A stretch of DNA of 64,000 bases from Candidatus Omnitrophota bacterium. GTDB taxonomy: Bacteria > Omnitrophota > Gorgyraeia > JAFGGP01. Where the stretch lies: positions 51,196-115,195 of the forward strand of contig JAFGGP010000011.1 in the NCBI GenBank assembly GCA_016930485.1, in the 5' to 3' direction. This document shows positions 8,453 to 64,000 of the stretch, in pieces. Under the pieces are notes generated by a model, which ran no database searches, was not told the DNA's origin, and saw only the letters and a program-made list of their open reading frames with translations. The position numbers and the translations under genes are program-made. How positions within the stretch are numbered: the stretch's first letter is position 1; every line of letters begins with the position of its first letter.

Positions 8453-8455
8453 GCC

Positions 8456-16737: not shown

Positions 16738-16954
16738 CACTAACCGGTCTAGCCGCTGTTGACCGGAGAGGGAAAAGGGAAGACGGGTGGCCGCCCGCGG
16801 GACCTCGACCATCGGGAATATCTCAGAGATACTATTATATTATGCTCAGGATGGAATTCGGGACTGTTTCGCACATCCCGTTTTTTAAGAGATACGAACA
16901 TTGCAATGTTTCTGATTCGTTATACTTCCAATGAGTGCATACAAGGAGGAAGAG

Positions 16955-39857: not shown

Positions 39858-39868
39858 GGAAAAATAGC

Positions 39869-40672
39869 ATGATTTATTTTATAGTGCCTGCCTATAACGA
39901 AGAAAAAAATATCGAGACCCTGATTGCCAAAACTGCCGAAAAAATGGAGGAGCTCAATGAAGACTACCGCATTTTGGTCGTCAATGACGGTTCCTCAGAT
40001 AATACCGATCGCATTGTGCGGTCATTCACGGGCAAGGCAAACGTCGACATTCTGACGCATCCGACCAATTTAGGCGTGGGCGCGGCGTTCAGGAACGGCT
40101 TCAAAAAAGCCCTGGCAGAAACTACCGATGACGACATTATTGTGACCAAGGAGGCCGACAACACAAGCGATCTTTCCATATTAAAGGATATGACGCTCCA
40201 GATACGCGGCGGTTCGGACGTTGTGCTTGCCTCCTGTTTTACAAAGGGGGGAGGGGTAAAGAATTCTACCCCGTATCGCCATATGCTCTCCGCAGGGGCA
40301 AATGCGTTGATAAAGCTCTTTTTTAATATGAGGGGACTGCATACATTTAGTTCTTTTTACAGGGCGTATCGCCCTTCTATTCTGCGGACGGCTTTAGCAT
40401 GTTATGGTGGCAGACTTATTGAAGAGCCCGGCTACGAATGCATGGTAGACTCCTTGATAAAATTACACCGGCTTACCAGAAATATTTCAGAGGTCCCCAT
40501 GGTCCTGAGGTGCGATATGAGAGAGGGGAAGAGCAAGATGAAAGTGCTCAGGACAATCAGGGGTTATTTGAGGGTGGTATTTAAAAATCTCTTTTTGTTT
40601 CACGTAGGGAGAACGGGAAGCGATCACGACGATTTTCGCCGGGCAGTCAAAGGAGAGGAAAGAACGACGTGA
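39869..40672 (+). CDS. GT2 polyprenyl-phosphate sugar transferase (DPM1/ArnC/GtrB-like)
   Basis: MIYFIVPAYNEEKNIE...YRILVVNDGSSDNT DXD-containing GT-A core. Start chosen after an AAGGA RBS; the track ORF starts at 39842. Confidence 0.7.
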   Translation: MIYFIVPAYNEEKNIETLIAKTAEKMEELNEDYRILVVNDGSSDNTDRIVRSFTGKANVDILTHPTNLGVGAAFRNGFKKALAETTDDDIIVTKEADNTSDLSILKDMTLQIRGGSDVVLASCFTKGGGVKNSTPYRHMLSAGANALIKLFFNMRGLHTFSSFYRAYRPSILRTALACYGGRLIEEPGYECMVDSLIKLHRLTRNISEVPMVLRCDMREGKSKMKVLRTIRGYLRVVFKNLFLFHVGRTGSDHDDFRRAVKGEERTT

Positions 40673-42231
40673 ACAGAATAAAGAATTACTTTATCGACAA
40701 CGCCTGGCTTATCAGCTTGGTTATGGCTACGTTACTGTTCAGGCTGCCGGGTATTTTTCGGCCTGAAACCATAGGGGATGAAGGTAAGGCAGTTGCTATT
40801 ATACAAAAACCATGGGGGCAGTTTATAGATCAGCTCATTTATCTGGATGCCCACCCGCCGCTCTATTTCTGTTTCATAAAATGGTGGGGCACAATGAGTA
40901 GAGATCTATGGTTTTTAAGGATGTTTTCTATTATGTTGTCTGTCCTGACGTGTATAGTGCTTTTTAAACTCACCCGAAGGCTTTTTAATAAGACGGCGGC
41001 GATCATAACCGCTTATTTATTCACCATCTCCCCGCAACTGGTTTTTGTATTTCAGTATCTGCGGCCGTATGCACTGGCCACTTTCTTCTTTTCCGTTTTT
41101 TTATACCTGGCTGTACTGTTTATGCATGCCGGTTCCTTCAGGAAAGCGGCAGTACTTGGAATATGCCTCGGCGCAATCTCTTTTTTGCTTGCCTATACCT
41201 TTTATCTATCTGTTTTTATTCTCTTTGCCTTTGCCCTGGTTGCTGTAAAGATACTCTTCAAAGATAAAAAGAAATTGTGGCTCTTTCTCTCTTCCCAGGC
41301 CCTCGCCCTGTTGCTCTATGTGCATTGGCTTCCCATACTGCAGGCCCAGACGAGAGAATTATACGCAGGGACGGGAGGCAGCAATCCGTTATTACATGCC
41401 GAAAGAATAGGTTTTTATGCCGGCAGATTGCATGTGGGCAATTTTTGTAAGCTATGTGCCGGCCTTTTGCAGTTCGAGGATATCATAGGGCATTCGAGAA
41501 GATTTTCCGAACGGTTGCCGGCATTCTGGTTGTTTTTTATTACGGGGGCCGCTATCCTTTTTTGCGTGTATATACTGGCTGCATCAATGAAGCATATATC
41601 GAAGAATGAAAGATATAAAAATACGGGCCAGCTTCTTTTGGGAACTCTTATGCTGTCGGTCTTTTTTATTTCATTGAAACTGGTGGCCGGAGATTATGGC
41701 ATCGGATTTCCCGTGCATATGAATATGCGGTATCTCTGTCAGCTATCTATCATAGTCCTTATTATAATGGGTGTTCTCCTGGCGGCTCTCTCTAGAGCAA
41801 AAAGAACCCTCATCCTGACCGGCATCTCTCTTTTTTATATCGCCCAGGTTTTGTATATAAATTCATATCCGATGAATATGTACAGGGCAGCATTTGCATT
41901 TCTGAAAGGAAAGAATGTCGATACGATTATTGCCTGCCCTCAAAGCCCGTCATGGATTGCCTATGTGGATAAAGAGCAGGAGATAGAAAAAAGAGTGAAT
42001 ATCATCGAATGTAGAGATGAGGCGACCGAGAAGAATACCCTCAAACGCGTTTCTTTGCTTGATGAGGTTTGTGTGTATTATTTGAATAAGGCGGAAAATA
42101 CCATCAGATTTACCGGCATATACGAAGATCTGCTGACAGAGTTACATACTATGGGATTTGTTGAGCAGGACGCCAAAAACATAAATGACCTGATTGTGTT
42201 GAAGTATCTGGTACGGCGAACACGCTCATAG
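40669..42231 (+). CDS. GT-C fold polytopic membrane glycosyltransferase (ArnT/PMT_2-like)
   Basis: About 12 TM helices. First periplasmic loop carries GDEGK, a DE-type motif as in ArnT/PMT GT-C enzymes. Lies immediately downstream of the ArnC-like GT2. Confidence 0.55.
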   Translation: MNRIKNYFIDNAWLISLVMATLLFRLPGIFRPETIGDEGKAVAIIQKPWGQFIDQLIYLDAHPPLYFCFIKWWGTMSRDLWFLRMFSIMLSVLTCIVLFKLTRRLFNKTAAIITAYLFTISPQLVFVFQYLRPYALATFFFSVFLYLAVLFMHAGSFRKAAVLGICLGAISFLLAYTFYLSVFILFAFALVAVKILFKDKKKLWLFLSSQALALLLYVHWLPILQAQTRELYAGTGGSNPLLHAERIGFYAGRLHVGNFCKLCAGLLQFEDIIGHSRRFSERLPAFWLFFITGAAILFCVYILAASMKHISKNERYKNTGQLLLGTLMLSVFFISLKLVAGDYGIGFPVHMNMRYLCQLSIIVLIIMGVLLAALSRAKRTLILTGISLFYIAQVLYINSYPMNMYRAAFAFLKGKNVDTIIACPQSPSWIAYVDKEQEIEKRVNIIECRDEATEKNTLKRVSLLDEVCVYYLNKAENTIRFTGIYEDLLTELHTMGFVEQDAKNINDLIVLKYLVRRTRS

Positions 42232-42252
42232 AAAGGGACAGAGAAACTCGAT

Positions 42253-43002
42253 ATGCGTATTACCCACCCTGAAAAAAGGCTTTTTCGCTTTTACGGCGAA
42301 GTAGTAGCGGCACAAAATAGAGAAATAATCCGGTTAATAACCGGAAAAAGGATTTTGGAAGTTGGTTCTGGTTATGGTGCCTTGATTCATCAGATTAAAA
42401 CAGAGAAGACGGATGTAGAAAACATTACGGGGATCGAGATTGATCCGGACTCAATTGATATAGCAAAAAAATTATATAACATCGATATTATGCACTCTTC
42501 GGTTTACCAAATGGATTTCGAGGACAATGCGTTTGACACGGTCATATTGAGACATGTTGTCCATCACTTAAATGAAGACGGCAATTTAAAAGGGGCATTG
42601 GAAGAGATAAAAAGGGTGTGCAGTAGAGAACTCATTATCTTCGACCCAAACCCTACATGGCTCTTGCGTTTTTGCAGAAAGATGATAAGGCATGTGGATC
42701 CCGAGGCCTCTCTGGATTACGTGATAGATGCATTACAAAGGAGCGGTTTTGAGGTCGCATCCTATACGTGGAGAGACGTCCTGGCATTTCCCTTGAGCGG
42801 GGGATTTGTAGGTGCGGAGCTTGTGCCCAACCATGCTGGCATTGAAAACGCCATTCTTCGATTCGATACTTTTTTAAATACTGTCTTGTTAAAACTGCGT
42901 CTGCAAAAGTACTTTTGCTGGCGGTATCTGATATATGCCACAAAGTGCGGTTGTCATGCAGCCGGCGCTTTTGCCGGGAAACAGGAGGTAGGCGCATTGT
43001 GA
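42253..43002 (+). CDS. Class-I SAM-dependent methyltransferase (Methyltransf_11-like)
   Basis: ILEVGSGYGAL motif I and FDTVILRHVVHHL motif II. Confidence 0.65.
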   Translation: MRITHPEKRLFRFYGEVVAAQNREIIRLITGKRILEVGSGYGALIHQIKTEKTDVENITGIEIDPDSIDIAKKLYNIDIMHSSVYQMDFEDNAFDTVILRHVVHHLNEDGNLKGALEEIKRVCSRELIIFDPNPTWLLRFCRKMIRHVDPEASLDYVIDALQRSGFEVASYTWRDVLAFPLSGGFVGAELVPNHAGIENAILRFDTFLNTVLLKLRLQKYFCWRYLIYATKCGCHAAGAFAGKQEVGAL

Positions 43003-43934
43003 TTATTACGGTTCAAGTGGACCTTGACGGGTTATGGGTACTCAAAAAGGCCCTCGGCACCGAAGGGGATCCTGCCGAGGACACACTCTATGAGATTGCC
43101 CTGCGCCGGGCCCTGCAGTTTTTCGCGAAGTTCGGGATAACGGCGACTTTTTTCGTGATTGGGAGAGATCTTGAGATCGGTTGGAAGCGTTCACTGCTCA
43201 AGGACGTGCTCATCAAAGGGCATGAGATTGCCTCTCATGGTTTCAGTCATTCATATCTGACACACTGCGCATCCAGGCACAAGACGGAGGAGATATGGCG
43301 TTCGAGCGAAATTATAAAAAGGGAACTGGGGGTTTCCGCGCAGGGCTTTCGGGCGCCCGGTTATGCTGTTGACGAAGAGACGCTGGAGGTAATACACGAG
43401 GCGGGATTTGTTTATGATTCATCGGTTTTGCCCACCCGGTGGCTGTGGGCACTGTCTCTCCTTCAGAGAATGCGTTCCAATGAAAAGAGCGCCGGATATA
43501 CCGGGGGAAACTGGGGGAACGCCCCGAACCGCCCTTACTTTCATATGCTGAAACAGGGCTCTTTGCCGTTACTTGAAATACCCGTTACTGTTTCGCCGAT
43601 TGGGCGACTTCCGATTCATTTCAGCTATCTTGAGAAGTATCTATCTCCGGGCATCTTTGAATTTTTTATAAAAAAGATTGCCACCAGAGAAGATTTTCTT
43701 AATTTTGTCTTTCACCTGATTGATTTCGTTGACCGGACCGAGGACGATCGCGTCAACAGGCTGCTGTGCCTTTCCCGCGATTGGAAGAAGAAATGCGCCC
43801 TTATTGAGAATGTGCTTACGACGATTACCAAGAGAGGGAGGACGGTTGCTACGCGGGATGCGGCAGAGACCATACGCGCATGCAATACACCCTGTCTGAG
43901 AGAGGAGACGCATGACGTTATTACTTCCCGATAA
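42999..43934 (+). CDS. NodB-homology polysaccharide/carbohydrate deacetylase (ArnD-like candidate)
   Basis: TATFFVIGRDLE and GHEIASHGFSHS NodB motifs. Start placed at the GTG 7 nt after an AGGAGGTAGG RBS, overlapping the upstream stop; the track ORF starts at 42915. Confidence 0.7.
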   Translation: MIITVQVDLDGLWVLKKALGTEGDPAEDTLYEIALRRALQFFAKFGITATFFVIGRDLEIGWKRSLLKDVLIKGHEIASHGFSHSYLTHCASRHKTEEIWRSSEIIKRELGVSAQGFRAPGYAVDEETLEVIHEAGFVYDSSVLPTRWLWALSLLQRMRSNEKSAGYTGGNWGNAPNRPYFHMLKQGSLPLLEIPVTVSPIGRLPIHFSYLEKYLSPGIFEFFIKKIATREDFLNFVFHLIDFVDRTEDDRVNRLLCLSRDWKKKCALIENVLTTITKRGRTVATRDAAETIRACNTPCLREETHDVITSR

Positions 43935-44556
43935 AAGAAATATCTGTGTCACCGGCCCCACAGACCCGACGCACCGGCACTACCAGTTTGGTGTCCGCTA
44001 TTTTATGAATAAGAGGCTGGAGATGGCACTTGAACTGCTTGAGGGGGCTGGCGGGGTGCGGGGGAGGTTTCTGGATGCGGGTTGCGGAGGCGGGGTCTTT
44101 TTACCGGAACTGTCGCGCTATTCCGACCGGCTCTATGCGATTGACATACACCGCAATCTCGCCGCCGTCGAACAAATGTGTAAGAACGAGGAAATCAAAG
44201 CGCATTTTTCATGCGCCTCACTTAAGGATATACCTTTTCAGGATGAGACATTTGATACGGTTATCTCGATTAGCGTACTCGAATTTGTTGACGATCTGGA
44301 GCGTGCCGTGGCTGAACTCAAACGTGTCTTAAAAAAGAGCGGCAGGCTAATCGTTGGCTTTCCTGTGTTAAACTACGTGACCAGACTCGGTTATTTCTTG
44401 ATCGGATGTTTTATCGCGGAGAAGGTCCATACCGCGACCCATACGGAGATCCTGGCGGCTTTAAACAGGGAGTTCAAAAGCGGAAGGGTGAATTATTTTC
44501 CGAAATATGCACCTTCTCATGCCGCACTCTATGCCTGCGGTTTGTTTAGCAGATAA
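43912..44556 (+). CDS. Class-I SAM-dependent methyltransferase
   Basis: FLDAGCGGGVF motif I, FDTVISISVLEFV motif II, AGAGGAG RBS. Confidence 0.6.
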   Translation: MTLLLPDKRNICVTGPTDPTHRHYQFGVRYFMNKRLEMALELLEGAGGVRGRFLDAGCGGGVFLPELSRYSDRLYAIDIHRNLAAVEQMCKNEEIKAHFSCASLKDIPFQDETFDTVISISVLEFVDDLERAVAELKRVLKKSGRLIVGFPVLNYVTRLGYFLIGCFIAEKVHTATHTEILAALNREFKSGRVNYFPKYAPSHAALYACGLFSR

Positions 44557-44568
44557 AAGGGGACAGCG

Positions 44569-46026
44569 ATGAACACGCTTGCGCAGTCTTTACAGGGCAC
44601 ACCCTGTGAAACGAAACAATACTGGATTATCCTAACTTTGATAAGCGCCTGTCTAGGGGCGATTCCATTGATGCCTCTTGAGATACTGTGCCCTCTTACG
44701 ATTATTGTGGGCGGCATCCTGCTGGGGGCGTTATTCATAGGCACAACTGCGCGGGAAGAATTCGATAAGGTATTTACCGTATTTTTTGTGACATTTTTGT
44801 TGAAAGTTATACTGGCGACCGGTCTGGCCACACTCAGTTTGGCTGATGACGGCGACGCGTTTTTTCTCAGCCGGGATGATGCGGCCTACAGCATTGATGG
44901 GGAATGGATTGCCCGGATGTGGAATATGGGGTATTTTCTGAGCCGCTCCGAGATACTTACTGTGTATATGCCCTGGAATGGCTCTTTGGGTAATTATGAT
45001 TTCTGGAATGCGAAAATCTATTATTTCTGCGGGTACAGTCCTTTTTCTTTGCTGTATCTTAACTGTCTTGCCGTGAGCCTCGCGGTCATTTTAGTGTACT
45101 TAATCTGCAGGGAAATGGGATTGAAGAAAGCGGGTATTATAGCCGCATGGTTGACCGCGTTTTGCCCCTCGTTAAACCTGTGGGCTACCCAGAATCTGAA
45201 AGACCCTTTTCTGATTTTGGCGACTCTTGCAGGGGTATGGTCGTTAATGCGCCTGCGGAGGGGGTTTCATTTCGTTGCCTGTATTATGCTTGGAGTAGCC
45301 GGTATACTGCTGTTTTATTTCAGACTGCCTCTGCTTGCCTTATTTATGGCGGTTATTCCGCTGTGGTTATTTTTCACATCGGACATATGGTTTTTGCACA
45401 AGCGCAGATGGATAAAGGTGTTTTTACTGTGTGCCCTTATCGCATTTCCCTTCATGAATGTCATAAGGGCGAGGATATCTATACACCATATATTGGGTAT
45501 TCCAGGGGATACCAACATCTTTCACTGGATAGATTTTAACAGATCGGTCAGGGCCTACGGGGCCACTGCCTTTATGCCGGATGTTGATCTATCGAGTCCT
45601 CTGGCCATTCTGAAATTTCTGCCTGTGGGCATGTTTGTGGCTATTTTTTCCCCGTTCCCCTGGCAGTTGGGGAGCTCCCGTCAGATAGTCAGTGCGCCCG
45701 AGATGCTCCTTGTGTATCTTCTGTTTCCCTACGCCATTGCCGGGATCTCGTATATATGGAAAAACAGGTATCGGGAAACAGCGCTGATTGCCGCCGTTAT
45801 GCTTACCACGTTTAGCTTTATCGCCCTTTTCGATGCGAATATCGGTACTATGTTCAGACATAAGTCCATAGTATTTCCGTTTATCATCATTTTTATCGCT
45901 CAGGGCTACTGTTTGAAGAAGGAAGAGGCCCTTGCGGAAAAGAAGGGTGTTTGTGCGCAGCCAGGGAGAGGCGATACATCATACGCGGGGGATATTTCTG
46001 AAACATGTGATACATATGAGCAATAA
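44569..46026 (+). CDS. Polytopic membrane protein, putative GT-C-like glycosyltransferase or Wzy/ligase-type polymerase
   Basis: At least 11 hydrophobic helices with no soluble domain. Asp-rich first loop (ADDGDAFFLSRDD). Family assignment is uncertain. Confidence 0.35.
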   Translation: MNTLAQSLQGTPCETKQYWIILTLISACLGAIPLMPLEILCPLTIIVGGILLGALFIGTTAREEFDKVFTVFFVTFLLKVILATGLATLSLADDGDAFFLSRDDAAYSIDGEWIARMWNMGYFLSRSEILTVYMPWNGSLGNYDFWNAKIYYFCGYSPFSLLYLNCLAVSLAVILVYLICREMGLKKAGIIAAWLTAFCPSLNLWATQNLKDPFLILATLAGVWSLMRLRRGFHFVACIMLGVAGILLFYFRLPLLALFMAVIPLWLFFTSDIWFLHKRRWIKVFLLCALIAFPFMNVIRARISIHHILGIPGDTNIFHWIDFNRSVRAYGATAFMPDVDLSSPLAILKFLPVGMFVAIFSPFPWQLGSSRQIVSAPEMLLVYLLFPYAIAGISYIWKNRYRETALIAAVMLTTFSFIALFDANIGTMFRHKSIVFPFIIIFIAQGYCLKKEEALAEKKGVCAQPGRGDTSYAGDISETCDTYEQ

Positions 46027-46039
46027 GAGAGTGAACGCA

Positions 46040-47296
46040 ATGTATATTTCTTATTACGGCCTCACCGAGCCCTTACTGCATTCACAGGGCCTTCCCTATA
46101 TAAAGGGACTCTCGAAAGCAGGGGTGCATTTTGATATCCTCTCTTTCGAAAAACCGCACCTCGTAACGCCCGATGCGGTGGACGCTATACAGCAAAAGCT
46201 TTCGTTATATAACATCGGCTGGCGCCGTTTTACCTATCATAAGAGGCCGCGTTTTCTCGCGACGCTTTTTGATGTCATACAGGGCTTTTGTTTTTTGCTC
46301 CGCTATATTCCGGAGAAAAAAATCCATATTGTCCATGCCCGGAGTGCCATTCCTGCCATTATGAGCTATCTGCCGGCCCGTCTGTGGAGAAGGAAATTCA
46401 TATTTGACGTAAGAGGACTCATGGCGGAGGAATATGCGGATGCCGGGACACTCAAAAGATCATCGTGGTTGTTTAAAGTTCTTAACAGAGTTGAAAAGAC
46501 ATTAATTGCCCGGGCAGACGGTATTATCGTGCTCACCGAAAAAATAGCGGGGGCGTTTCGTAACGGATATATCGCCGCGGCAAAGAAACCGCGCATCACG
46601 CAGATTATTCCCTGCTGCGCTGATTTGGAAAAATATACCCCGCAGACGCCGGATACGTTTTTGCGGGACACACTCGGCATTTCAGGCTGGCCTGTTTTTA
46701 TCTATGTGGGCTCGCTCGGAAGCTGGTATGCACTCGATGAGATGCTCGATTTTTTTCTTGCCGCTCAACGGCGCTGGAGAGACGCACAGCTTTTAATCAT
46801 TACGCAATCCGATCGTGCAATGGTAAAAAACCGTCTTTCCTCGAAGGGCGTCTCCGAAAAAAAGACGGTAATTATGGCCGTTGACCATGAGGCCATTCAG
46901 CGATATATCGCGCTTGCGCACGTCGGCCTCCTTTTTTATAAACCGGCTTTTTCCCGGTGCGCAACGTCGCCCACCAAGCTTGCGGAGTACCTTGGGTGCG
47001 GTTTGCCGGTGGTAGTCACAGAGGGCGTCGGCGATACGTCTGAATTGGTAGAGCGGGAGAAGATAGGGACTGTCCTAAAGGATGTTACAGTTTCAGGCTA
47101 TCAGCGCGCCGTCGATGAGATCGAACGTCTGTTATCAGGCAATCATAGAGAGACGGTTGCTCGATGCAGAAGTGCCGCCGAGCGTTATTTTGATATCCAG
47201 ACAGGTATTATGCTTTACCGAAAGGTGTACGGGGCCCTCACAGATCTCCAGGAGGACACCGGGGAGGGAGCCGTCAGAGAAAGTGCGTATGTATAA
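46040..47296 (+). CDS. GT4-family glycosyltransferase
   Basis: C-terminal ...TSPTKLAEYLGCGLPVVVTEGVGDTSELVE region is the GT4 E-x7-E motif. Start ambiguous; the track ORF begins at 45932, overlapping the upstream gene. Confidence 0.7.
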   Translation: MYISYYGLTEPLLHSQGLPYIKGLSKAGVHFDILSFEKPHLVTPDAVDAIQQKLSLYNIGWRRFTYHKRPRFLATLFDVIQGFCFLLRYIPEKKIHIVHARSAIPAIMSYLPARLWRRKFIFDVRGLMAEEYADAGTLKRSSWLFKVLNRVEKTLIARADGIIVLTEKIAGAFRNGYIAAAKKPRITQIIPCCADLEKYTPQTPDTFLRDTLGISGWPVFIYVGSLGSWYALDEMLDFFLAAQRRWRDAQLLIITQSDRAMVKNRLSSKGVSEKKTVIMAVDHEAIQRYIALAHVGLLFYKPAFSRCATSPTKLAEYLGCGLPVVVTEGVGDTSELVEREKIGTVLKDVTVSGYQRAVDEIERLLSGNHRETVARCRSAAERYFDIQTGIMLYRKVYGALTDLQEDTGEGAVRESAYV

Positions 47297-47335
47297 AAGA
47301 TACACAACAGAAGTTCGATTGCTCGCGATTAAATA

Positions 47336-49513: not shown

Positions 49514-49517
49514 TATC

Positions 49518-51604: not shown

Positions 51605-51764
51605 TGATGGACGCGAACAGATCTATCGGAGAGTATGTTGCGGGAATCGCGTGGCGCCGAACGGTGTACTCTTGGCGGTTCGGGCTACCGGAAAGAGGAG
51701 CCGTTTTTGAATATGACGGGCGTCACCGGCGCGCCGATCAGGACGTTACGGACAAAAGAGGGAT

Positions 51765-54029: not shown

Positions 54030-54282
54030 TATCTTAATCGGCATTATAGTCGGTTTTTTCGCGGATCTGTTTTCCCTGCAGCGGGTCCCTCTGGGTGTGA
54101 TTGCCTTCATGCTGGTCGGCGTCGCGGGTAGTTTTGCAGGGGAGTTTATTGTCAGATTGCTGATAGAGCACGGAAAACTGCTTCCCCTGTTCTACAGCAA
54201 ACATTTTATCGTTATAGAAAATGCCCTCTCGGCATGTATTTTTGTGTATCTCTTTAACCTTATAAAATGGGACTATAGATGA
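54001..54282 (+). CDS. Small GlsB/YeaQ/YmgE-like (transglycosylase-associated) membrane protein
   Basis: 93 aa, three Gly-rich helices (ILIGIIVGFFADLF...VIAFMLVGVAGSFAGEFIV) resembling the YeaQ/YmgE family. Overlaps the end of the upstream GT. Confidence 0.4.
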   Translation: MMSPLHITVNILIGIIVGFFADLFSLQRVPLGVIAFMLVGVAGSFAGEFIVRLLIEHGKLLPLFYSKHFIVIENALSACIFVYLFNLIKWDYR

Positions 54283-55052
54283 AGTTGTATTATAGGGGTT
54301 TACGGCGACTTTTTTTTCGAAAGAACGCGATAATGATTATTGCCGTTCTTGTGCTTTTTGGTATCGCGCACATCCCGGTTACCGAAAAATACGGCGTTAA
54401 TTTCACCTATTACCAGAGGACCATGCCGCTTTACGAAAAGGCGGTGCATTTTATCTCCCGGCATCTCTTATATCGGAGATTGGCGCGTGAGATTACCCTG
54501 CAGGCGACTACTCCCGAAGAGGCCCTCGAGGCTATTTTAGAGTGGATGCGCGACAACATCCATAACGGGATTCCGCAGGGATTGCGGGTGTGTGATGATC
54601 ATATAGCCAGTATTATTATCAGGGGCTATGGGGCCGACGATCAGATTGTGGATGTCTTTTGTGTGCTCTCTACCTACAGCGGCATGCGGGCATCGATGTA
54701 TAAACTTCCGAAATCGGCCGATGGCACATCTTTTCGGGTTGCCGCTATTGTTGAGGTAGACGGCCTCTGGAGGCTTGCCGATCCGAATTATCATCTGATC
54801 TTCAGAGACGAACGTGGAGATCTCATGACATTGAATACCCTTATTGGCGATCCCCACAGCATTGAGAGGTCGCCGTCCCTGGAGGCGCTCCCGGGAGCAA
54901 AAGAGCCTTATCTTATGTATTTTCAATATATTAAGCCCGTCGGCGAAATTAAAACAGTCAGGGCCGAACTGCAGATTCCGTTGAGGCGTTTGCTGTTTGA
55001 GATACGAAAGGCGTTCCGGCTGGAGGACAATCCACCCCTCTTTGTCGGGTAG
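54279..55052 (+). CDS. Hypothetical N-terminally membrane-anchored protein with a weak transglutaminase-like fold signature
   Basis: One TM helix (IMIIAVLVLFGIAHI). Downstream, ...VEVDGLWRLADPNYH resembles the His/Asp region of transglutaminase-like domains, but the canonical Cys position is GAD. Function unknown. Confidence 0.3.
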   Translation: MKLYYRGLRRLFFRKNAIMIIAVLVLFGIAHIPVTEKYGVNFTYYQRTMPLYEKAVHFISRHLLYRRLAREITLQATTPEEALEAILEWMRDNIHNGIPQGLRVCDDHIASIIIRGYGADDQIVDVFCVLSTYSGMRASMYKLPKSADGTSFRVAAIVEVDGLWRLADPNYHLIFRDERGDLMTLNTLIGDPHSIERSPSLEALPGAKEPYLMYFQYIKPVGEIKTVRAELQIPLRRLLFEIRKAFRLEDNPPLFVG

Positions 55053-55062
55053 AAAGGAAACC

Positions 55063-56229
55063 ATGCTTACTATCTGTTCCCCGCAACTGAGCATTGCCCA
55101 TGATGCACATCTAGGGGGCGCGGTGACCGACAGGGAGTTTTTATGCCATCTTGCAAAGAGGGGCTATCATATTAAGGTGTTGCTTCCCGAGGGGGAAAGC
55201 TACAAGTCTGCCGACAATGTGGAGATTATTTTCCTGAAACGGAATATGTTGCTCGATCATTCGTATACGGCCAATTTTTTCTTTCTGAAGACACTTGACC
55301 GGGTGCTCTCCGAGGGTCGTGTAGATATCCTTAGGGTTCATTCACCCTATAGCATCGGTATCGGGGCGAGCCTGTTGAAGACGTTTCGCAGGGAGATGCC
55401 TCCGCTGTGGTTTTCGTTTCTTCATCTCGAAAAGCGATGGGACTGGCACATTCTTGATAAGACGTTACCGTTTTTTGCCGATGGTATTACGGCCTTGAGC
55501 GAAGACACTATGGGCGACTTAAGACGGCGTTTTCCTTATTTGGATAAAAAGATCACGCGGGTTACCCCCTTGGGAATAGACACGGATGTGTTTTTCCGCA
55601 TCGAGAACCCCGTGCTTCACGAACTCAACGGGATTGATACCGCAAAACCGATCGTCCTTTTTGTCGGGTCTCTGATAAAGCGGAAAGGCGTTGACCTTCT
55701 TTTGGAAAGCTGGCCCAAGATAAAAACAATCTGCCCCGATGCCCAGCTGGTTATTGTCGGACAGGGGCCTTCGGAATTTATGATAACGGAATATCTCGAC
55801 AGATATCCGGATATGTACCATGTGCGTTTTTTGACACAGGAACGCCTGGTGCACTATTACTCTACCGCCAGCGTCTTTGCCTTTCCCTCTCGAAAGGAGG
55901 GATTTGGTATGGTAGTGGGGGAGGCCATGAGCTGCGGTGTGCCGGTCGTTGCTTTCCGGACCCACGGGGTGCAGAGGCTGGTTGAGGATGGGCGAAGCGG
56001 ATACATGGTAGATCCTGAGGATGTGGATGTGTTTGCCGAGAAGGTCGGCCATCTCATTCGCCATCCGGAAGATGCCATCCAGATGGGCAACCGGGCACGA
56101 CGGCGCATCGCGAAGGAATTTTCCTGGGACGTTACCATTCTCGAGGTGGAACAGTTTATGACACAGCTTCTCGCACGCCGGAGATACAGGTCGTCACAAT
56201 CGCAGAAGGCATATAGCGCCGCACCATGA
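55063..56229 (+). CDS. GT4-family glycosyltransferase
   Basis: AAAGGAAA RBS. FPSRKEGFGMVVGEAMSCGVPVVA E-x7-E motif. Confidence 0.75.
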   Translation: MLTICSPQLSIAHDAHLGGAVTDREFLCHLAKRGYHIKVLLPEGESYKSADNVEIIFLKRNMLLDHSYTANFFFLKTLDRVLSEGRVDILRVHSPYSIGIGASLLKTFRREMPPLWFSFLHLEKRWDWHILDKTLPFFADGITALSEDTMGDLRRRFPYLDKKITRVTPLGIDTDVFFRIENPVLHELNGIDTAKPIVLFVGSLIKRKGVDLLLESWPKIKTICPDAQLVIVGQGPSEFMITEYLDRYPDMYHVRFLTQERLVHYYSTASVFAFPSRKEGFGMVVGEAMSCGVPVVAFRTHGVQRLVEDGRSGYMVDPEDVDVFAEKVGHLIRHPEDAIQMGNRARRRIAKEFSWDVTILEVEQFMTQLLARRRYRSSQSQKAYSAAP

Positions 56230-57179
56230 CAAACGCCTCTGTACCGTTACATATCGGAGTTATTATAGGCACTCGCAACCGAGTGGCCGCGCTGTTGACG
56301 TGCGTCTCTTCGCTCGTGAGTCAGACGAGAAGACCCGATGAGGTAATCATTATTGATGACGGTGCAATGGATGATACCGGTATCAGAAGGCTCTTCGCCC
56401 GGCACTCGATACGGTATCGGTACGTAAAAAAAGAAGATCACTTCGGCCTGGTCTATTCGCGGAATATGGGTGCGCGGCTGCTTACCTCGGATATCGCCCT
56501 TTTTCTGGACGACGATGTTATTCTGGACCGGGGCTATATCGAGGCGATCCTCAGGGTCTATCAGCAGGATACGGATGGCACGGTGGGGGGCGTCGGCGGA
56601 GTCCTGGTAGACAGAAGGGCAAGCTACGCAAAGAGGCTATTCCTGTGGATTTTCGGACTCTACCGTTTTCACAAAGACGGCCTGATTCTACCGAACGGTT
56701 TCGGGGTTCTTATAAGGGATATCGATCAGATAGAACGCGTGGATTGGCTGAGCGGATGCAATATGAGTTTCCGCAGGGCGGTGGTCGAAGAGTTCCGGTT
56801 TGACGAATCCCTGAGAGACAACGGATGGGGGGATGACAAGGATTTCAGTTACCGGGTAGCGCGGAGGTATACCTTGCTGGCAACGCCGCATGCACGCGTC
56901 GTGCACCTTGAGGATAAAGAAGGCAGGGTTACGAAGAGGGAGTTCGGTTTTATCGAGATATACCATCAGTATGTTTTTTTTCGCAATCATATGTCCAAAT
57001 GCCCCGGTACCTGGCTTGCCTTTTGGTGGGCGCTTACGGGACTTCTTTTGAAGAACCTCCTGACGGCACGCCTCAATCAGGCAGGAGGCAACCTGAGCGC
57101 TATGGCGGCTATCGTAAAAGAAACTATCAGGAAAGGAGACGGCACAGATGTATCTTGCAACACTCAGGCGATACTTTAA
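56226..57179 (+). CDS. GT2-family glycosyltransferase
   Basis: IGVIIGTRNRVAALLTCVSSL...VIIIDDGAMDD GT-A DXD region. Confidence 0.7.
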   Translation: MTNASVPLHIGVIIGTRNRVAALLTCVSSLVSQTRRPDEVIIIDDGAMDDTGIRRLFARHSIRYRYVKKEDHFGLVYSRNMGARLLTSDIALFLDDDVILDRGYIEAILRVYQQDTDGTVGGVGGVLVDRRASYAKRLFLWIFGLYRFHKDGLILPNGFGVLIRDIDQIERVDWLSGCNMSFRRAVVEEFRFDESLRDNGWGDDKDFSYRVARRYTLLATPHARVVHLEDKEGRVTKREFGFIEIYHQYVFFRNHMSKCPGTWLAFWWALTGLLLKNLLTARLNQAGGNLSAMAAIVKETIRKGDGTDVSCNTQAIL

Positions 57180-58467: not shown

Positions 58468-58514
58468 GTTATATGTGTATGTAACGGTCCTGTAAGCAGG
58501 GCCTGGGAAAAAAT

Positions 58515-60686
58515 ATGCACAATGAAGCGGCCATGATTATCGGCGTTCTTCCCGAGCAGGGAGGCAGTATTACGTCCTACAGTTTTTCAGGTCAGGATGA
58601 GCGGCTGGTTACCTACTATCTCGGTTCGTATGCCCGCTCCTTTGATAAGACATATTTTTTCTCCTACAGGAAGGAATCAAAGGACCTGCCCGCCCGGTGC
58701 GAGCTCGCGGACAATAAGTGGGGGCTGCACCGGTGGCTCTATGGACCTCTCCTTCCGATTCTTTATAAAAGGCACTTTAGACGATGTTCGCTGTTGCGCG
58801 TGATGCAGGCAACGGGAGAGGTGCCGGCCCTTCTTGCCAAGGCATTGTTCAGGGTGCCGGTCGTGGCTACGTACGGGTATCGTTATGACCTGCATGCGCG
58901 TTTAGAGGGACACTGGTTCAGGTCGCTTCTCTTCAGACTGAGAGAGCGCATTGCGCTGCCTCGGTTTGATGCCGTTATCATTACCAATAGCGAGACATAC
59001 AGGCATGTATCGCGCTATCTTCCTCCGGAGAGGATATGGTATATCCCTAACGGGGTCGATACCGCCCTTTTTCGACCCGATCCGGAAGGGGAAAAGCAGA
59101 GTAAGGTAAAAACGGTTATTGCTGTGGGGGGATTAAGACGGCAGAAAAATTATCCCCTTTTACTCGAGGCTATTTCACGGCTGGGGAGAGGGGTAAAGCT
59201 TAAGATTATCGGAGACGGGACATTGCTGGAGGGGCTCAGGACACATGCCCGGCAGCTTAAGGTGGATGTTGAATTTACCGGGAGCATACCTCATGAAAAA
59301 CTGCCCCCCTACCTTAATCAGGCGGATGTCTTTGTAATGAGTTCTTATGCCGAGGGACATCCAAAGGCCCTCCTTGAGGCGATGAGCTGCGGCTTGCCCT
59401 GTGTCGGTGTCGCTATTGAGGGGATCAAAGATGTGATTACCGATGGCGTCAACGGTCTTGTGTGTCAGGCAGAGCCAGGAGATCTGGCGCGGGCGATCGC
59501 CCGTTTACTGGATGACAAAGCGCTTTCGCAGAGGCTGGGCGAGGAGGCCCGCCGGTCGGTACAGGAGTGCTATGAACTTACTGATCTCATCGATCAGGAG
59601 ATTGCACGCCACAGGGATTTAATCGCCTTACAGACGCGCGGCACCACATCTTCCTGGATAGCGGCTTTACGGGGTCGCATTGCACGGATTAACGGGGTCC
59701 GCGATCTTATTCATAAAGTACGGGAAAAAATCCTCAACGGGGTCTGGTCTGTTTTTACGATACGGGGGATGAAGGTGCGCGCCCTCATCAGAAAAAGAAA
59801 GCAGCACGTTTCACAGAAAAGGGCGCTGCGATTTCCCGATACGCTGCACATTGAGCTGACCAACAGGTGCAACCTTAACTGTGCCATGTGTTCGCACGAC
59901 AGGATGAAACGGATCAGAAAAGATATGGATTTTCATCTCTTTAGGTGCCTGATCGACGAATGCAGGAATTACCCGGTAGATGCGATATCGCTTTACTATT
60001 TCGGCGAGGCCCTCCTTTACCCCCACCTTCTAGAGGCTATCCGGTATGCGCATCAGACACTGGACGGTGTTCATACACGCATCCGTACCAATGCACAGCT
60101 TCTTACCGAGCGCAGGACGAGGGAGCTTTTGGCCTCGGGATTGACGGCCCTTGAGTTTTCTCTCGAGGGTTACACCAGGGAGGTCTATGAGACACTCATG
60201 AAGGGGGCATCTTACGAAGAGACCCTCGAGCGCCTCGGCAGGTATTTCCGTCTGAAGAAGGAACTGGGCATCCGCCAGCAGAACGCTATCGTGACCGTGG
60301 CCATGGATGAAACACTACCGGCGATGAAGCAGTTTGTACGCGCCTGGTCACGATTCGCGCCGGTAAGCGTTACCAGGCTCCATTCGGGTTTCGTGACAGG
60401 AGAGTCTTCTCTGCCGGGAAAAACGGCGTATCAACGCACTATACCATGCCCCGAGCCCTTTTATCACGCAATGGTTCTTTCTAACGGCGAAGTAACGTTT
60501 TGCTGCTGCGATGTCGAAGGGGCGCTCTCCATAGGCAATATCACAAGACACAATCTGCATACTATCTGGAACAGTCGGCGCGCAGAGGAGATTCGGCGCT
60601 TACACCGTGAGTGTGCGTTCGACACCCTTCCTATCTGCAGGCAGTGTTCGAACGGCATTCTCCGCCAGGGGGTCATCAGACGATGA
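58515..60686 (+). CDS. Fusion protein: N-terminal GT4 glycosyltransferase plus C-terminal radical SAM/SPASM domain
   Basis: aa 1-~380: GT4 (SSYAEGHPKALLEAMSCGLPCVGVA E-x7-E). aa ~430-723: radical SAM (TNRCNLNCAMC = CxxxCxxC; YFGEALL) followed by a Cys-rich SPASM tail (CPEPF...FCCCDVEG...CRQCSNG). One uninterrupted ORF. Confidence 0.8.
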   Translation: MHNEAAMIIGVLPEQGGSITSYSFSGQDERLVTYYLGSYARSFDKTYFFSYRKESKDLPARCELADNKWGLHRWLYGPLLPILYKRHFRRCSLLRVMQATGEVPALLAKALFRVPVVATYGYRYDLHARLEGHWFRSLLFRLRERIALPRFDAVIITNSETYRHVSRYLPPERIWYIPNGVDTALFRPDPEGEKQSKVKTVIAVGGLRRQKNYPLLLEAISRLGRGVKLKIIGDGTLLEGLRTHARQLKVDVEFTGSIPHEKLPPYLNQADVFVMSSYAEGHPKALLEAMSCGLPCVGVAIEGIKDVITDGVNGLVCQAEPGDLARAIARLLDDKALSQRLGEEARRSVQECYELTDLIDQEIARHRDLIALQTRGTTSSWIAALRGRIARINGVRDLIHKVREKILNGVWSVFTIRGMKVRALIRKRKQHVSQKRALRFPDTLHIELTNRCNLNCAMCSHDRMKRIRKDMDFHLFRCLIDECRNYPVDAISLYYFGEALLYPHLLEAIRYAHQTLDGVHTRIRTNAQLLTERRTRELLASGLTALEFSLEGYTREVYETLMKGASYEETLERLGRYFRLKKELGIRQQNAIVTVAMDETLPAMKQFVRAWSRFAPVSVTRLHSGFVTGESSLPGKTAYQRTIPCPEPFYHAMVLSNGEVTFCCCDVEGALSIGNITRHNLHTIWNSRRAEEIRRLHRECAFDTLPICRQCSNGILRQGVIRR

Positions 60687-62023
60687 ATATAGCGTTTATG
60701 ACTGAGTACTTTTCTCCGTTTGTGATCGGCGGCGCAGAGCTGAGCGCCTACGCGCTTGCCCGGGAGCTGACCGGGCGGGGGCATTCGGTGACCGTCGTTA
60801 CCCCCAACTACGGTGCCCGCGAGTACGAGGAGATCGGCGGAATCAGGATATACCGCATCGCCTTTCCGCAGAAACTGAAACCCGGCGACCAGGCCCGCTC
60901 GTTCTTCATGCACAGCGTATTCATGCAGCTGTACTTCGCGCGGTGTCTTGTCCGGATCTGCCGCCGTCATAAGATAGAAGTTATACACGCGCAACACACC
61001 AATGCCATTATCCCGGCGTTTGTAGCGGCAGCATTTACCCGGTGCCGTTCGGTGGTGACGCTCAGGGATTTTCATTCGATTACCGCCGGCAGCGTGTTGT
61101 GGCTTAACCGGCGTTCCGGCGAAGAGAACATTCAGGCTGCCGGCGGATATTTCCGGAGCGCCTTTCGATTTCAGAAATTTTTCAATCCCGATCAAAACGG
61201 TTTCGCCCGCCTAAAGGCGTGGTGCGATATCATATATCGGTGGCCGGATCTCCGGTTACGCCAGTTTTGTCTGCGCCGTTTCGATACGGTTATCGGGGTG
61301 AGCGAGAACCTCCGGGCGCTCTATTTCGAGAACGGTTTTGCCTGCCTCAAAGGCCGTTTCCGGGTTCTCTATAATATACCACCTGACTGTTCGCGGGTTC
61401 CCTATAACCCGGAGGGAATAAAGAGGAAGTATGTCATCCCGGAGGATGCCCGCGTCGTATTGTGGGCGGGCAGGCGGACGCCTGCCAAGGGGTTCGATGT
61501 TTTTCTTAGGGGTATCCCGCTGGTGCGGGACCGCCTATCGGATGTCTGTTTCGTCGTGGCGGGGAGAGGCCTTGCGTGCGATGAATCATTACAGAGTATA
61601 AGCGCCATCCGAGATCTGGGCGTTCTTCCAAATCAGGAGATTCTGAAACTGATGACAATCTCTGATGTGGTCGTTGTCCCGTCGCAGTGGGACGAGCCCC
61701 TCAGCAGAACCATGATAGAGGCCCTCTCGATGGGCAGACCGGTTATTGGTACCTCTGCCGGGGGGACACCTGAGCTGATCAGTGACGGGGAAAACGGTTT
61801 TTTGATCAGGCCGGGTGATGCCGGGGATCTGGCGGAAAAAATAGCACTCATTATCAGTGACCGCGAACTGCAAAAAAGACTGTCGCTTCGGGCAATCGAG
61901 TCAATAAGACGCATATGCAGTCCGGAGCGCATTACCGATGAGGTCCTCGCTGTATACCGGGGCGATCAGGTAGTGCAAAGGTCTCAGCCTGAGACGGCAT
62001 CTTCTTATATCGGTAGATTATGA
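60683..62023 (+). CDS. GT4-family glycosyltransferase
   Basis: ATGA overlap with the upstream gene. MNIAFMTEYFSPFVIGGAE N-terminus and a SQWDEPLSRTMIEALSMGRPVIGT E-x7-E region. Confidence 0.75.
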   Translation: MNIAFMTEYFSPFVIGGAELSAYALARELTGRGHSVTVVTPNYGAREYEEIGGIRIYRIAFPQKLKPGDQARSFFMHSVFMQLYFARCLVRICRRHKIEVIHAQHTNAIIPAFVAAAFTRCRSVVTLRDFHSITAGSVLWLNRRSGEENIQAAGGYFRSAFRFQKFFNPDQNGFARLKAWCDIIYRWPDLRLRQFCLRRFDTVIGVSENLRALYFENGFACLKGRFRVLYNIPPDCSRVPYNPEGIKRKYVIPEDARVVLWAGRRTPAKGFDVFLRGIPLVRDRLSDVCFVVAGRGLACDESLQSISAIRDLGVLPNQEILKLMTISDVVVVPSQWDEPLSRTMIEALSMGRPVIGTSAGGTPELISDGENGFLIRPGDAGDLAEKIALIISDRELQKRLSLRAIESIRRICSPERITDEVLAVYRGDQVVQRSQPETASSYIGRL

Positions 62024-63774: not shown

Positions 63775-63784
63775 AGGAATATAC

Positions 63785-64000
63785 ATGAATACGCATATCG
63801 CATCTATAAGTAACACAAGGCCTCACAGCGGGACAGGGACCACCAACGAATTAGCGGTTATTATCCCTGTTTATAACGAGGCAGACGGCGTAGAAAAAAA
63901 TATCGGAGACTGGATCAGGGCGTTATCCAGGCTCGGTATCAGATATCGTATTTTTGCCATCAATGACGGATCGACGGATGCAACCGGGGCTATTTTGGAA
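63785..64000 (+). CDS. GT2 polyprenyl-phosphate sugar transferase (DPM1/ArnC-like), 3'-truncated at the window edge
   Basis: LAVIIPVYNEADGVEKNI...YRIFAINDGSTDATGAILE closely parallels the N-terminus of the gene at 39869. Confidence 0.6.
   Translation, partial: MNTHIASISNTRPHSGTGTTNELAVIIPVYNEADGVEKNIGDWIRALSRLGIRYRIFAINDGSTDATGAILE

Follow-up and report, generated by a model that had tools for sequence, protein, structure and literature searches.

Four polytopic membrane proteins, here named C1 to C4, are encoded between 39 and 64 kb of the DNA analyzed in this study, a stretch of 64 kb (the window) from a metagenome-assembled genome (MAG) that NCBI calls 'Candidatus Omnitrophica bacterium'. 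On sequence grounds we assign all four as genuine glycosyltransferases of the GT-C_A fold (PMT_2/ArnT/STT3-like) that are deeply diverged from one another, and we predict that they transfer sugars from polyprenyl-(di)phosphate-linked donors on the extracytoplasmic face. This region makes up the distal part of a single-strand, tightly packed surface-glycan supercluster of more than 55 kb, lipopolysaccharide (LPS)- or capsule-like, and it probably consists of three modules: an Arn-like block around C1, a core of C2 and C3 with GT4 glycosyltransferases, and a Gtr-like module with C4. The locus looks like a lineage-typical version of a known kind of multicomponent glycosylation outside the cytoplasm, in which GT-C enzymes use polyprenyl-phosphate sugars as donors, not like a new type of system.

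Four diverged GT-C enzymes of the PMT_2/ArnT/STT3 clan

The whole window was annotated with Pfam, and individual genes were checked against NCBIfam models and PDB sequences. An earlier reading of the same DNA, made without database searches (the sequence-only reading), had named the genes at 40669, 57148, and 62020 as GT-C-like and the gene at 44569 as a further candidate. All four open reading frames (ORFs) are present on the plus strand, and their products score above the gathering score of 26.1 bits of the Pfam family PMT_2 (PF13231): C1 (40669-42231, 520 aa) with 35.8 bits, C2 (44569-46026, 485 aa) with 28.1 bits, C3 (57148-58467, 439 aa) with 46.4 bits, and C4 (62020-63774, 584 aa) with 46.4 bits. 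The Pfam family STT3 matched C4 under threshold (23.3 bits) and was absent for C1 to C3. By a crude hydropathy scan each protein has 6 to 10 transmembrane (TM) segments. The hidden Markov model (HMM) check against Wzy, O-antigen ligase, and transporter families that had been proposed with the sequence-only reading gave no match to Wzy_C, flippase, or transporter families of Pfam at E≤0.1, and PMT_2 was assigned to all four. As the recent literature places Wzy itself under the broad 'GT-C' heading (PMC12502699), the contrast is better put as one between the Wzy_C/WaaL clan and the PMT_2/ArnT/STT3 clan; all four proteins fall in the latter. NCBI names C1, C2, and C4 'glycosyltransferase family 39 protein', and each of them is a singleton cluster.

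The loop-1 Asp/Glu motifs that had been claimed for C1, C3, and C4 proved to be real when the proteins were aligned: the acidic residues are D37-E38 in C1, D53 in C3, and D36-E37 in C4, and C2 has D103 at this place as well. Loop 1 would lie on the extracytoplasmic side in all four proteins.

A search of PDB sequences with each GT-C as a single query returned nothing at E≤1, so that profiles were needed. BLASTP found no significant pairwise similarity among C1 to C4, and we therefore rejected the idea that the four genes arose by recent tandem duplication. Profile comparison with hhalign did join all four. The C1 family aligned with the C3 family at 97.6% (E 2.9e-12) across the PMT_2 core, C4 aligned with the C3 family at 78.9% (E 1.6e-5) with D36 in the Asp column of that family, and the C2 family aligned with the C3 family at 99.4% (E 5.4e-22) over 363 columns, so that the entire length with the C-terminal Arg motif is covered. 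The extent of this last alignment indicates that C2 and C3 are ancient full-length paralogues.

AlphaFold2 (AF2) models were compared with solved structures by Foldseek, and the models of C1 (predicted local distance difference test score [pLDDT] 71.2, predicted template modeling score [pTM] 0.71) and C2 (pLDDT 75.7, pTM 0.79), both all-helical bundles, resembled solved GT-C structures; at E<1e-2 only GT-C enzymes were found for either. In the case of C1, the matches were led by STT3 (4e-7) and ArnT (5e-6), followed by AglB, ALG9/12, Pmt4, AftA, and Emb. In the case of C2, whose chain ends directly after the last TM helix, PglB came first (7e-5), followed by STT3, AglB, ArnT, DPY19, ALG9/12, and Pmt. 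The O-antigen ligase WaaL (7tpg) matched the C2 model with an E value of 0.07, a probability of 0.60, and a TM-score of 0.20, and transporters and G protein-coupled receptors appeared only as noise, with a transporter probability of at most 0.14.

None of the four enzymes could be placed in a characterized subfamily. The NCBIfam model of ArnT was absent among the matches of C1 to C4 at E≤0.1, and matches to TIGR04154 reached 17.6 bits for C2 and 21.7 bits for C4, compared to a cutoff of 450. The WWDxG motif, searched as the regular expression W[WYF]D[YWFN]G, is absent from C1 to C4, which do not even contain a WD dipeptide, and no large oligosaccharyltransferase (OST)-type periplasmic domain and, by Pfam, no MIR domain was found in them.

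C2 and C3 form a conserved cassette with two GT4 enzymes

C2 (44569..46026, plus strand) is a minimal GT-C_A enzyme made of the TM core only, and its family spans several phyla, with 2095 representatives at E≤1e-3 in an exhaustive HMMER search. PMT_2 was matched by 64 of 75 aligned family members (best, 1.3e-16), and this family membership settles the marginal PMT_2 score of C2 itself. Other Pfam matches among the 75 members were PMT (6), STT3 (2), and Wzy_C (1, with an E value of 0.006). The residues D103, P200, P362, N424, G426, and R430 are invariant in the 75-sequence alignment. Among PDB sequences, the family profile matched STT3A (9e-4) and also AglB. C3 (57148..58467, plus strand) is an ArnT-like GT-C_A enzyme; a profile of 11 family members matched ArnT (5ezm) at 1.2e-6, and its loop-1 sequence 'D-x3-Y-x3-A-x-N' was aligned to 'PDEGRYAEISREM' of ArnT, which places D53 on the ArnT DE motif. 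A scan of metagenome contigs for C3 relatives was empty.

Two GT4 genes on the plus strand are partners of C2. The first (46016..47296) encodes an stp3-like enzyme with Pfam GT4/GT1 matches, whose sole NCBIfam match was TIGR04063 (stp3, 74 bits). The second (51765..54029) encodes a double GT4 of 754 aa with two GT4 modules; its N-terminal half is the conserved partner, and its C-terminal half is stp2-like (TIGR03088, 230 bits, under cutoff). To assess conservation, one genome per GTDB species was scanned with a 12-member C2 alignment, which yielded 80 C2-family loci, all in MAGs or single-cell genomes, from Omnitrophota, Planctomycetia, Acidobacteriota (mostly Pyrinomonadaceae), Gemmatimonadota, Myxococcota, and a few MAGs labeled otherwise. 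All ORFs within 10 kb on each side of the C2 relative were translated and searched with every protein of the window, and a GT4 was counted as a partner when it reached at least 150 bits and lay at most 5 kb from the C2 relative on the same strand. Relatives of GT4 46016 were found near C2 in 47 of the 80 loci, including 16 of the 18 loci of the Omnitrophota/Planctomycetia group, and relatives of GT4 51765 in 50, with the N-terminal half aligned in 52 of 54 such matches; both partners were present in 40 loci. As many of the 80 loci are cut by contig ends, these counts are lower bounds. C3 relatives occurred in 13 to 14 of the 80 loci, in seven of them directly upstream of C2 (L007, L009, L013, L015, L018, L020, and L022), whereas relatives of the two polyprenyl-phosphate-type GT2 enzymes described below (E≤1e-5, mostly weak) were found in only 13 and 8 loci, respectively. 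AsnB-like genes also flank C2 relatives. These results do not agree with a view of C2 and C3 as free-standing decorating enzymes: the two are distant full-length paralogues which in relatives stand in a tandem cassette with two GT4s, mostly without a strong relative of a donor synthase.

The sequence-only reading had regarded the number of GT-C-like genes as unusually dense. At least three polytopic membrane proteins (GT-C-like plus Wzx-type) per ~20 kb were counted in 12 of the 18 Omnitrophota/Planctomycetia-group loci, with numbers of three to five recurring in half of these loci, and the serotype c carbohydrate (SCC) locus of Streptococcus mutans has two Glc-P-Und (undecaprenyl-phosphate glucose) synthase/GT-C pairs, which are experimentally established (PMC11754754). 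Several GT-C-like genes per locus thus recur in the lineage and are not peculiar to the window. The 18 unlabeled polytopic neighbors in these 18 loci comprised eight Wzx-type flippases, four PMT_2 and three PMT proteins (the two classes may overlap), and one each of TMEM260-like, PTPS_related, MBOAT, and Wzy_C proteins. In the other 62 loci, 51 polytopic neighbors included 16 initiating transferases of the Glycos_transf_4 type, about 15 MurJ/Wzx-type flippases, eight Wzy_C proteins, and four PMT_2 proteins. Of the related Omnitrophota loci, L003 carries a large polytopic DUF6798 protein (18036-19760), and L015 two polytopic paralogues (2162-3715 and 7245-8819; 318 bits to each other), one of which adjoins a relative of GT2 63785; these extra proteins may represent additional GT-C lineages.

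The genes around C3 were also analyzed. A GT2 gene (56226..57179, plus strand; Glycos_transf_2, 82.4 bits) overlaps the C3 start by 32 nt. Its best PDB matches, chondroitin and heparosan synthases, mark the product as a conventional GT2 and rule it out as a third donor synthase paired with C3, which leaves two donor synthases for four GT-Cs. Downstream of C3 follows a GT4 fused to a radical S-adenosylmethionine (SAM)/SPASM domain (58515..60686, plus strand; Glycos_transf_1, 127.5 bits; Radical_SAM, 56.9 bits; SPASM, 49.6 bits). In this 723-aa ORF, the GT4 occupies residues ~1 to 360 and the radical SAM/SPASM part residues ~440 to 712; in the relatives L013 and L017 radical SAM and GT4 are separate neighboring genes. 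The ORF at 54279-55052 (plus strand, 257 aa), with a weak match to a transglutaminase core (E 0.006), is related to an ORF beside C2 in L011 (15675-16469; 155 bits) and may for this reason belong to the C2 cassette.

C1 lies in an Arn-like block

The block around C1 has the order formyltransferase, GT2, GT-C with 4-nt overlaps on the plus strand. Its first gene (39060..39857; Formyl_trans_N, 83.7 bits) encodes a sugar-nucleotide N-formyltransferase resembling the formyltransferase domain of ArnA; it is a stand-alone protein of 265 aa, whose NCBIfam matches to fmt, ArnA, and dTDP-4-amino-4,6-dideoxyglucose formyltransferase were all under cutoff. The second gene (39842..40672; Glycos_transf_2, 73.8 bits) encodes a GT2 of the polyprenyl-phosphate glycosyltransferase type with 276 aa; its likely start is the ATG at 39869, as given in the sequence-only reading, and it shares its last 4 nt with the start of C1. 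The sequence-only reading had described this protein and the GT2 at 63785 as similar to polyprenyl-phosphate sugar synthases, in agreement with their best solved relatives, which are dolichyl-phosphate mannose synthase (DPMS), ArnC, and GtrB. For GT2 39842, the matches were DPMS of P. furiosus (5mlz, 3.4e-17), ArnC (1e-9), and GtrB (5e-8). C1 itself (40669..42231) combines the GT-C_A fold, supported by PMT_2 and the AF2 model, with a C-terminal alpha/beta extracytoplasmic domain. Downstream of C1 lie, also on the plus strand, a SAM-dependent methyltransferase gene (42253..43002; Methyltransf_11, 57.5 bits), a gene for a NodB-type polysaccharide deacetylase (42915..43934; Polysacc_deac_1, 65.5 bits) with an uncertain start codon, and a second SAM-dependent methyltransferase gene (43912..44556; Methyltransf_11, 84.7 bits). 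The deacetylase is a candidate deformylase or deacetylase, ArnD-like in role only.

A word-indexed search of 5.8 billion proteins gave three C1 homologues, and D37-E38 together with an HPPL motif are invariant in its 4-member alignment. In L011, relatives of the GT2 (235 bits) and of C1 (182 bits) are neighbors, and the same adjacency is seen with weaker similarity in L005; the weaker C1 relative P0004 is preceded by a GT2 of 261 aa. L011 is the closest overall relative of the window: it contains the GT2, the C1 relative, a 608-aa polytopic ORF, and a relative of GT2 63785 and, further on, C2, GT4, GT4, and the relative of ORF 54279. The ArnC- and ArnA-type scores of the GT2 and the formyltransferase (53.8 versus a cutoff of 529 and 78.5 versus a cutoff of 777) were far from the level of Arn equivalogs, and by analogy the block may be said to work like Arn, not to be Arn.

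C4 is followed by a second polyprenyl-phosphate-type GT2

C4 (62020..63774, plus strand) is an orphan GT-C with a C-terminal region of ~190 aa. Its gene is preceded by a GT4 gene (60683..62023, plus strand; Pfam), whose start is backed by a Logan gene call and whose stop overlaps the C4 start. The Agl23-type model TIGR03663 matched residues 12-373 of C4 with 29.8 bits, under threshold. C4 found only itself in the word-indexed search of 5.8 billion proteins, and a scan of genome contigs for C4 relatives was empty.

The second polyprenyl-phosphate-type GT2 gene (63785..64000, plus strand; Glycos_transf_2, 75.5 bits) is cut by the end of the window. A Logan contig of 16.8 kb (L001), identical to the window over 11,981 nt with 0 mismatches, extends the sequence by 758 nt beyond the 3′ end, as the sequence-only reading had advised, and completes this GT2 at 256 aa; the gap between C4 and the GT2 is 10 nt. 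The best PDB matches were ArnC (7e-13), GtrB (1.8e-10), and DPMS (3.7e-6). Among NCBIfam models, ArnC was the top match of both GT2s and PpgS, PgfS, and AglJ were matched too, all far under cutoff. The order of C4 and the GT2 had been interpreted as a GtrB/Gtr*- or ArnC/ArnT-like pairing, an interpretation that holds and extends to GT2 39842 and C1, whose pairing recurs in L011. A donor synthase is adjacent to C1 and C4 only, not to C2 or C3. In an arrangement analogous to that of C4 and its GT2, a large polytopic ORF lies beside a relative of GT2 63785 in L011, L014, L015, and L017. These ORFs were considered as C4 orthologues, but no such relationship was detectable (best phmmer match 6.8 bits, E 8.5e-4 with 8 targets). 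The gene after GT2 63785 (L001, 12533-12739) opens with 'MNSDNSIILGGGITGLAAG', which contains a GxGxxG FAD/NAD-binding motif. The product could be UDP-galactopyranose-mutase-like or an oxidoreductase of lipid-linked sugars; the fragment of 69 residues had no Pfam match and no relative in the fetched loci.

A three-module model and its alternatives

Building on these family and fold assignments, gene adjacencies, and conservation in relatives, we infer the following donors, acceptors, sidedness of steps, and flippase. In module 1, modeled on ArnA-FT/ArnC/ArnD/ArnT, GT2 39842 would load an N-formyl or N-acyl amino sugar onto undecaprenyl phosphate in the cytoplasm; the loaded sugar would be trimmed or deformylated, flipped, and then moved by C1 on the periplasmic face. 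Ugd, short-chain dehydrogenase/reductase (SDR), and DegT genes are present in the window and could supply a 4-amino sugar. Module 2 would comprise C2 and its two GT4 partners (46016 and, of 51765, the N-terminal half), with C3 as a further member in Omnitrophota and Planctomycetia, and no donor synthase is dedicated to it. In the cytoplasm, the GT4s would assemble an oligosaccharide on a lipid carrier, and C2 and C3, possibly as a heterodimer comparable to Pmt1-Pmt2 and EmbA-EmbB, would act on it after Wzx-type flipping. In module 3, C4, the soluble GT2 63785, and the FAD/NAD-binding enzyme would attach a sugar as a side chain, with a polyprenyl-phosphate sugar as donor. For flipping, the Wzx-like protein 31172 is the sole candidate, comparable to GacK.

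Several observations weigh against this model. No enzyme of the window reaches an NCBIfam equivalog cutoff, so that no sugar can be named. The best NCBIfam match of deacetylase 42915 is the XrtA-system deacetylase TIGR03006 (77 bits, under cutoff), and no ArnD model matched it at E≤1e-6. The closest C1 relative (P0002 in L003, 38% identity) has no adjacent GT2; a Kdo-transferase homologue, an MsbA-like ABC transporter, and an SGNH protein are encoded upstream of it. No C4 relatives were detectable, and the C4/GT2 pairing can therefore not be checked by conservation. The TM counts of C1 to C4 come from the hydropathy scan mentioned above. No initiating phosphoglycosyltransferase (Bac_transf or Glycos_transf_4), no Wzy, and no WaaL was found in the window; the pathway is thus incomplete as seen, although Wza, Wzi, Wzz, a flippase of the Wzx type, and over ten glycosyltransferases are encoded, and the role of C2 and C3 is a guess. 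Furthermore, no flippase of the GtrA, ArnE/F, SMR, or MATE type was found in the window. Finally, GT2 39842 and GT2 63785 have no predicted TM segment, unlike ArnC, GtrB, and archaeal DPMS with their C-terminal helices. The lack of these helices makes the description 'DPM1-like' apt for both, which resemble the soluble type that needs a membrane partner. Human DPM1 is such a soluble-type polyprenyl-phosphate synthase. Precedents for soluble GT-A donor synthases and for a Wzx-type flippase exist in GacI/GacJ/GacK, in which GacI is the soluble-type donor synthase and GacK the flippase (PMC8035078). The only small membrane ORF, at 53965 (105 aa), was considered as a GtrA- or GacJ-type partner but had no GtrA match at E≤0.1.

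The absence of Wzy and WaaL admits another reading of the C2 cassette, in which C2, alone or with C3, is the missing polymerase or ligase and flipped undecaprenyl-diphosphate (Und-PP)-linked units are polymerized or moved en bloc to lipid A-core. We regard this as possible but doubtful. In its favor, no Wzy_C/WaaL protein was found anywhere in the 64 kb, where the polytopic proteins of the glycan locus are the Wzx-like protein and the four GT-Cs only, and a recognizable Wzy is nearly absent beside the C2 cassette in relatives: Wzy_C accounts for only one of the 18 unlabeled polytopic neighbors in the Omnitrophota/Planctomycetia-group loci, eight of which are Wzx-type, and the 51 in the other 62 loci include the 16 initiating transferases and ~15 flippases, with eight Wzy_C proteins. 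The conserved core travels with repeat-unit GT4s, usually without a donor synthase, and PglB, STT3, and AglB, which use diphosphate-linked glycans, rank above ArnT in the fold and profile matches of C2. On the other hand, the loci cover only 10 kb per side and Wzy proteins often escape Pfam and HMMs, eight loci do have a Wzy_C protein beside C2, the Foldseek margin of PglB over ArnT is small with TM-scores of just 0.4 to 0.5, and a Wzy may lie outside the window, as the source contig has a length of 122,304 bp (122 kb). We know of no GT-C_A enzyme that polymerizes diphosphate-linked repeat units, which likewise weighs against this role. The more general claim that the C2 family, paired with C3 in Omnitrophota and Planctomycetia, is an unrecognized polymerase or en-bloc transferase replacing Wzy/WaaL in a widespread Wzx-dependent pathway, with an enzyme of the STT3/ArnT type in the role of O-antigen polymerase or ligase, appears unlikely to us.

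The acceptor could also be different. Transfer of sugars to Ser, Thr, or Asn residues of envelope proteins, as by PMT, TMEM260-like proteins, or PglB, is suggested by the Pfam family, which is named after protein O-mannosyltransferases, by the fold matches to STT3, PglB, Pmt, and DPY19, and by a streptococcal study in which a PMT_2-type GT-C reportedly glycosylates disordered protein regions. We consider it quite improbable, as C1 to C4 have no WWDxG motif, large OST-type periplasmic domain, or MIR domains, no candidate acceptor protein is encoded nearby, and the genes sit in a locus for polysaccharide export and assembly (Wza, Wzi, Wzz, Wzx, Kdo transferase, and about ten GT4/GT2 enzymes). 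Very improbable is the idea that all four enzymes act outside polymer assembly as ArnT/EptA-style modifiers of lipid A or the inner core that tune surface charge. The ArnT match of the C3 profile, the position of C1 in an Arn-like block, the Kdo-transferase homologue in the window, and the occurrence of another such homologue and an MsbA-like ABC transporter 4 kb from the L003 relative of C1 would fit it, but no equivalog cutoff of ArnT, ArnC, or ArnD was reached, C2 and C3 relatives travel with repeat-unit GT4s and initiating transferases in exopolysaccharide (EPS)-type loci, and there are only two donor synthases. That the four proteins are in reality Wzy proteins, O-antigen ligases, or transporters which match PMT_2 by chance hydrophobicity is effectively refuted. 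Only the score of C2 is marginal (28.1 versus 26.1 bits), and a single family member has a weak Wzy_C match (E 0.006); opposed to this are scores above threshold for all four proteins, PMT_2 matches in 64 of 75 C2-family members, the conserved loop-1 Asp residues, the ArnT match of the C3 profile, and fold searches with C1 and C2 that returned GT-Cs only, with WaaL at E 0.07 and a TM-score of 0.2.

Comparison with known glycosylation systems

The three-module model has counterparts in several characterized systems. Pairs of a gene for a cytoplasmic GT-A enzyme loading polyprenyl phosphate and a polytopic GT-C gene within a polysaccharide locus, as formed here by GT2 39842 with C1 and by C4 with GT2 63785, are typical of three-component systems such as GtrA-GtrB-Gtr* of Shigella and Salmonella, CsbB-GtcA-YfhO, SccN/SccM with SccP/SccQ of S. 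mutans, and the Citrobacter GT136 system, and two pairs per locus are found in the SCC locus of S. mutans. Three synthase/GT-C pairs are present in L. lactis (PMC8035078), and 'more elaborate systems containing multiple ... GT-Cs' have been noted in Xanthomonas and Bacillus (PMC11127046). Unlike the three-component systems, the window has no GtrA, SMR, or MATE gene, its synthases have no TM helices and no identified GacJ-like partner, and four GT-Cs are present for two synthases, the GT-Cs being too diverged for any characterized subfamily.

The Arn pathway (ArnB-C-A-D-T-E-F), which modifies lipid A with L-Ara4N and whose transferase ArnT belongs to GT83, resembles the window in several ways. 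Within 5 kb, the window combines genes for a formyltransferase and a GT-C with genes for a polyprenyl-phosphate GT2 and a NodB-fold deacylase, and it also contains genes for Ugd, an SDR, and a DegT-type aminotransferase. Both GT2s have ArnC among their best matches, and C1 and C3 have ArnT among their best fold or profile matches. The window differs from Arn in the absence of equivalog-level scores and of ArnE/F, in the two interleaved methyltransferase genes, in a GT2 without the two TM helices of ArnC, in a formyltransferase without the dehydrogenase domain of ArnA, and in a deacetylase nearer to XrtA-type EPS deacetylases than to ArnD.

The mycobacterial arabinan machinery also applies several GT-Cs to one glycan and includes a paralogous GT-C pair (EmbA-EmbB); aftA, embC, embA, and embB are contiguous. 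In the synthesis of phosphatidylinositol mannosides, lipomannan, and lipoarabinomannan (PIM/LM/LAM), cytoplasmic GT4 steps precede an extracytoplasmic GT-C as proposed here for module 2: PimA and PimB carry out GT4 steps before the GT-C PimE. Different from mycobacteria, no UbiA-type phosphoribosyl pyrophosphate (PRPP) transferase and no DprE1/E2 were seen, C2 and C3 have no carbohydrate-binding C-terminal domains, and the organism is Gram-negative with Wza/Wzi export. The sequence-only reading had assumed a distinct lipid-linked donor for each GT-C and hence three to four independent glycosylation events. This assumption did not hold, with only two synthases for four GT-Cs and with mycobacterial GT-Cs sharing one donor: AftA, EmbA-EmbB, and AftB/C/D all use decaprenyl-phosphate arabinose (DPA) (PMC10265970; sharing also in PMC11127046).

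In fold, the TM cores of C1 and C2 are matched best by the oligosaccharyltransferases PglB, AglB, and STT3, a group that also gave the best profile match of the C2 family, and loci of C2 relatives are similar to pgl loci in having GT4s, a flippase, and an initiating transferase, yet C1 to C4 have neither WWDxG nor a large C-terminal periplasmic domain. The window resembles PEP-CTERM/XrtA EPS loci in that stp3, stp2, and TIGR03006 are the best NCBIfam matches of 46016, the C-terminal half of 51765, and 42915, respectively; AsnB-type amidotransferase genes, which also belong to this set, are located beside C2 relatives. The scores are far under the cutoffs, no exosortase was seen, and the membrane enzyme is a PMT_2-type GT-C, whereas that of XrtA loci is a Wzy_C-type protein (TIGR03097).

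Besides the near absence of Wzy beside the C2 cassette, our analysis adds to the sequence-only reading the Arn-like block around C1, the paralogy of C2 and C3 with their ancestral tandem arrangement, and the cassette C3-C2-GT4-GT4 of Omnitrophota and Planctomycetia, of which C2 and the GT4 pair occur in three further phyla. Omnitrophota are uncultured bacteria with very small cells. Judging from this locus, a large part of their surface glycan would be assembled or decorated extracytoplasmically, with lipid-linked sugars as the source, by a logic akin to the eukaryotic and archaeal dolichol pathway with GT4 enzymes inside, a DPM1-like synthase, and GT-Cs outside. The Arn-like block may modify the envelope with an amino sugar, and a tractable relative would allow the function of the conserved C2 cassette to be tested. 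Should C2, alone or together with C3, prove to replace Wzy/WaaL, Wzy-less polysaccharide loci of environmental genomes would have to be read differently. A clean annotation of four very divergent GT-Cs is of modest practical value.

Other genes of the supercluster

Every substantial gene of the 64-kb window lies on the plus strand. The supercluster comprises genes for LptD (4889; Pfam) and two UDP-sugar dehydrogenases, for Wzi, Wza, and a Wzz-domain protein (11324-16737; Pfam), a nonulosonic-acid block of the PseB/PseC/NeuB type (16931-24704; Pfam), and a Kdo (3-deoxy-D-manno-oct-2-ulosonic acid)-transferase homologue (29665; 209 bits over the full length, under cutoff). The Wzx-type 12-TM flippase (31172..32761; Polysacc_synt_3, 55.3 bits) is a candidate carrier of lipid-linked intermediates; in a TM scan of all plus-strand ORFs, this protein and the four GT-Cs were the only polytopic proteins of the glycan locus. 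From ~35.8 kb to the end of the window, genes for GT4, GT2, sugar-nucleotide-modifying, and GT-C enzymes (Pfam) follow one another with overlaps or gaps of at most 47 nt, except for one gap of 160 nt.

A stand-alone radical SAM/SPASM gene (34669-35727) adjoins the GT4 gene at 35778. Between 16931 and 28625 (plus strand), the nonulosonic-acid block is accompanied by a cytidylyltransferase-aminotransferase fusion (20013-22067), GNAT and ATP-grasp proteins, a second formyltransferase-like protein (27251), and a PIG-L deacetylase, a gene content that suggests a heavily modified sugar of the pseudaminic or legionaminic type. Just upstream of LptD and the supercluster, a pair of diguanylate cyclases of the GGDEF type, of which one also has a GAF domain, is encoded on the plus strand (773-3477), and a link of cyclic di-GMP to surface-polysaccharide production is possible.

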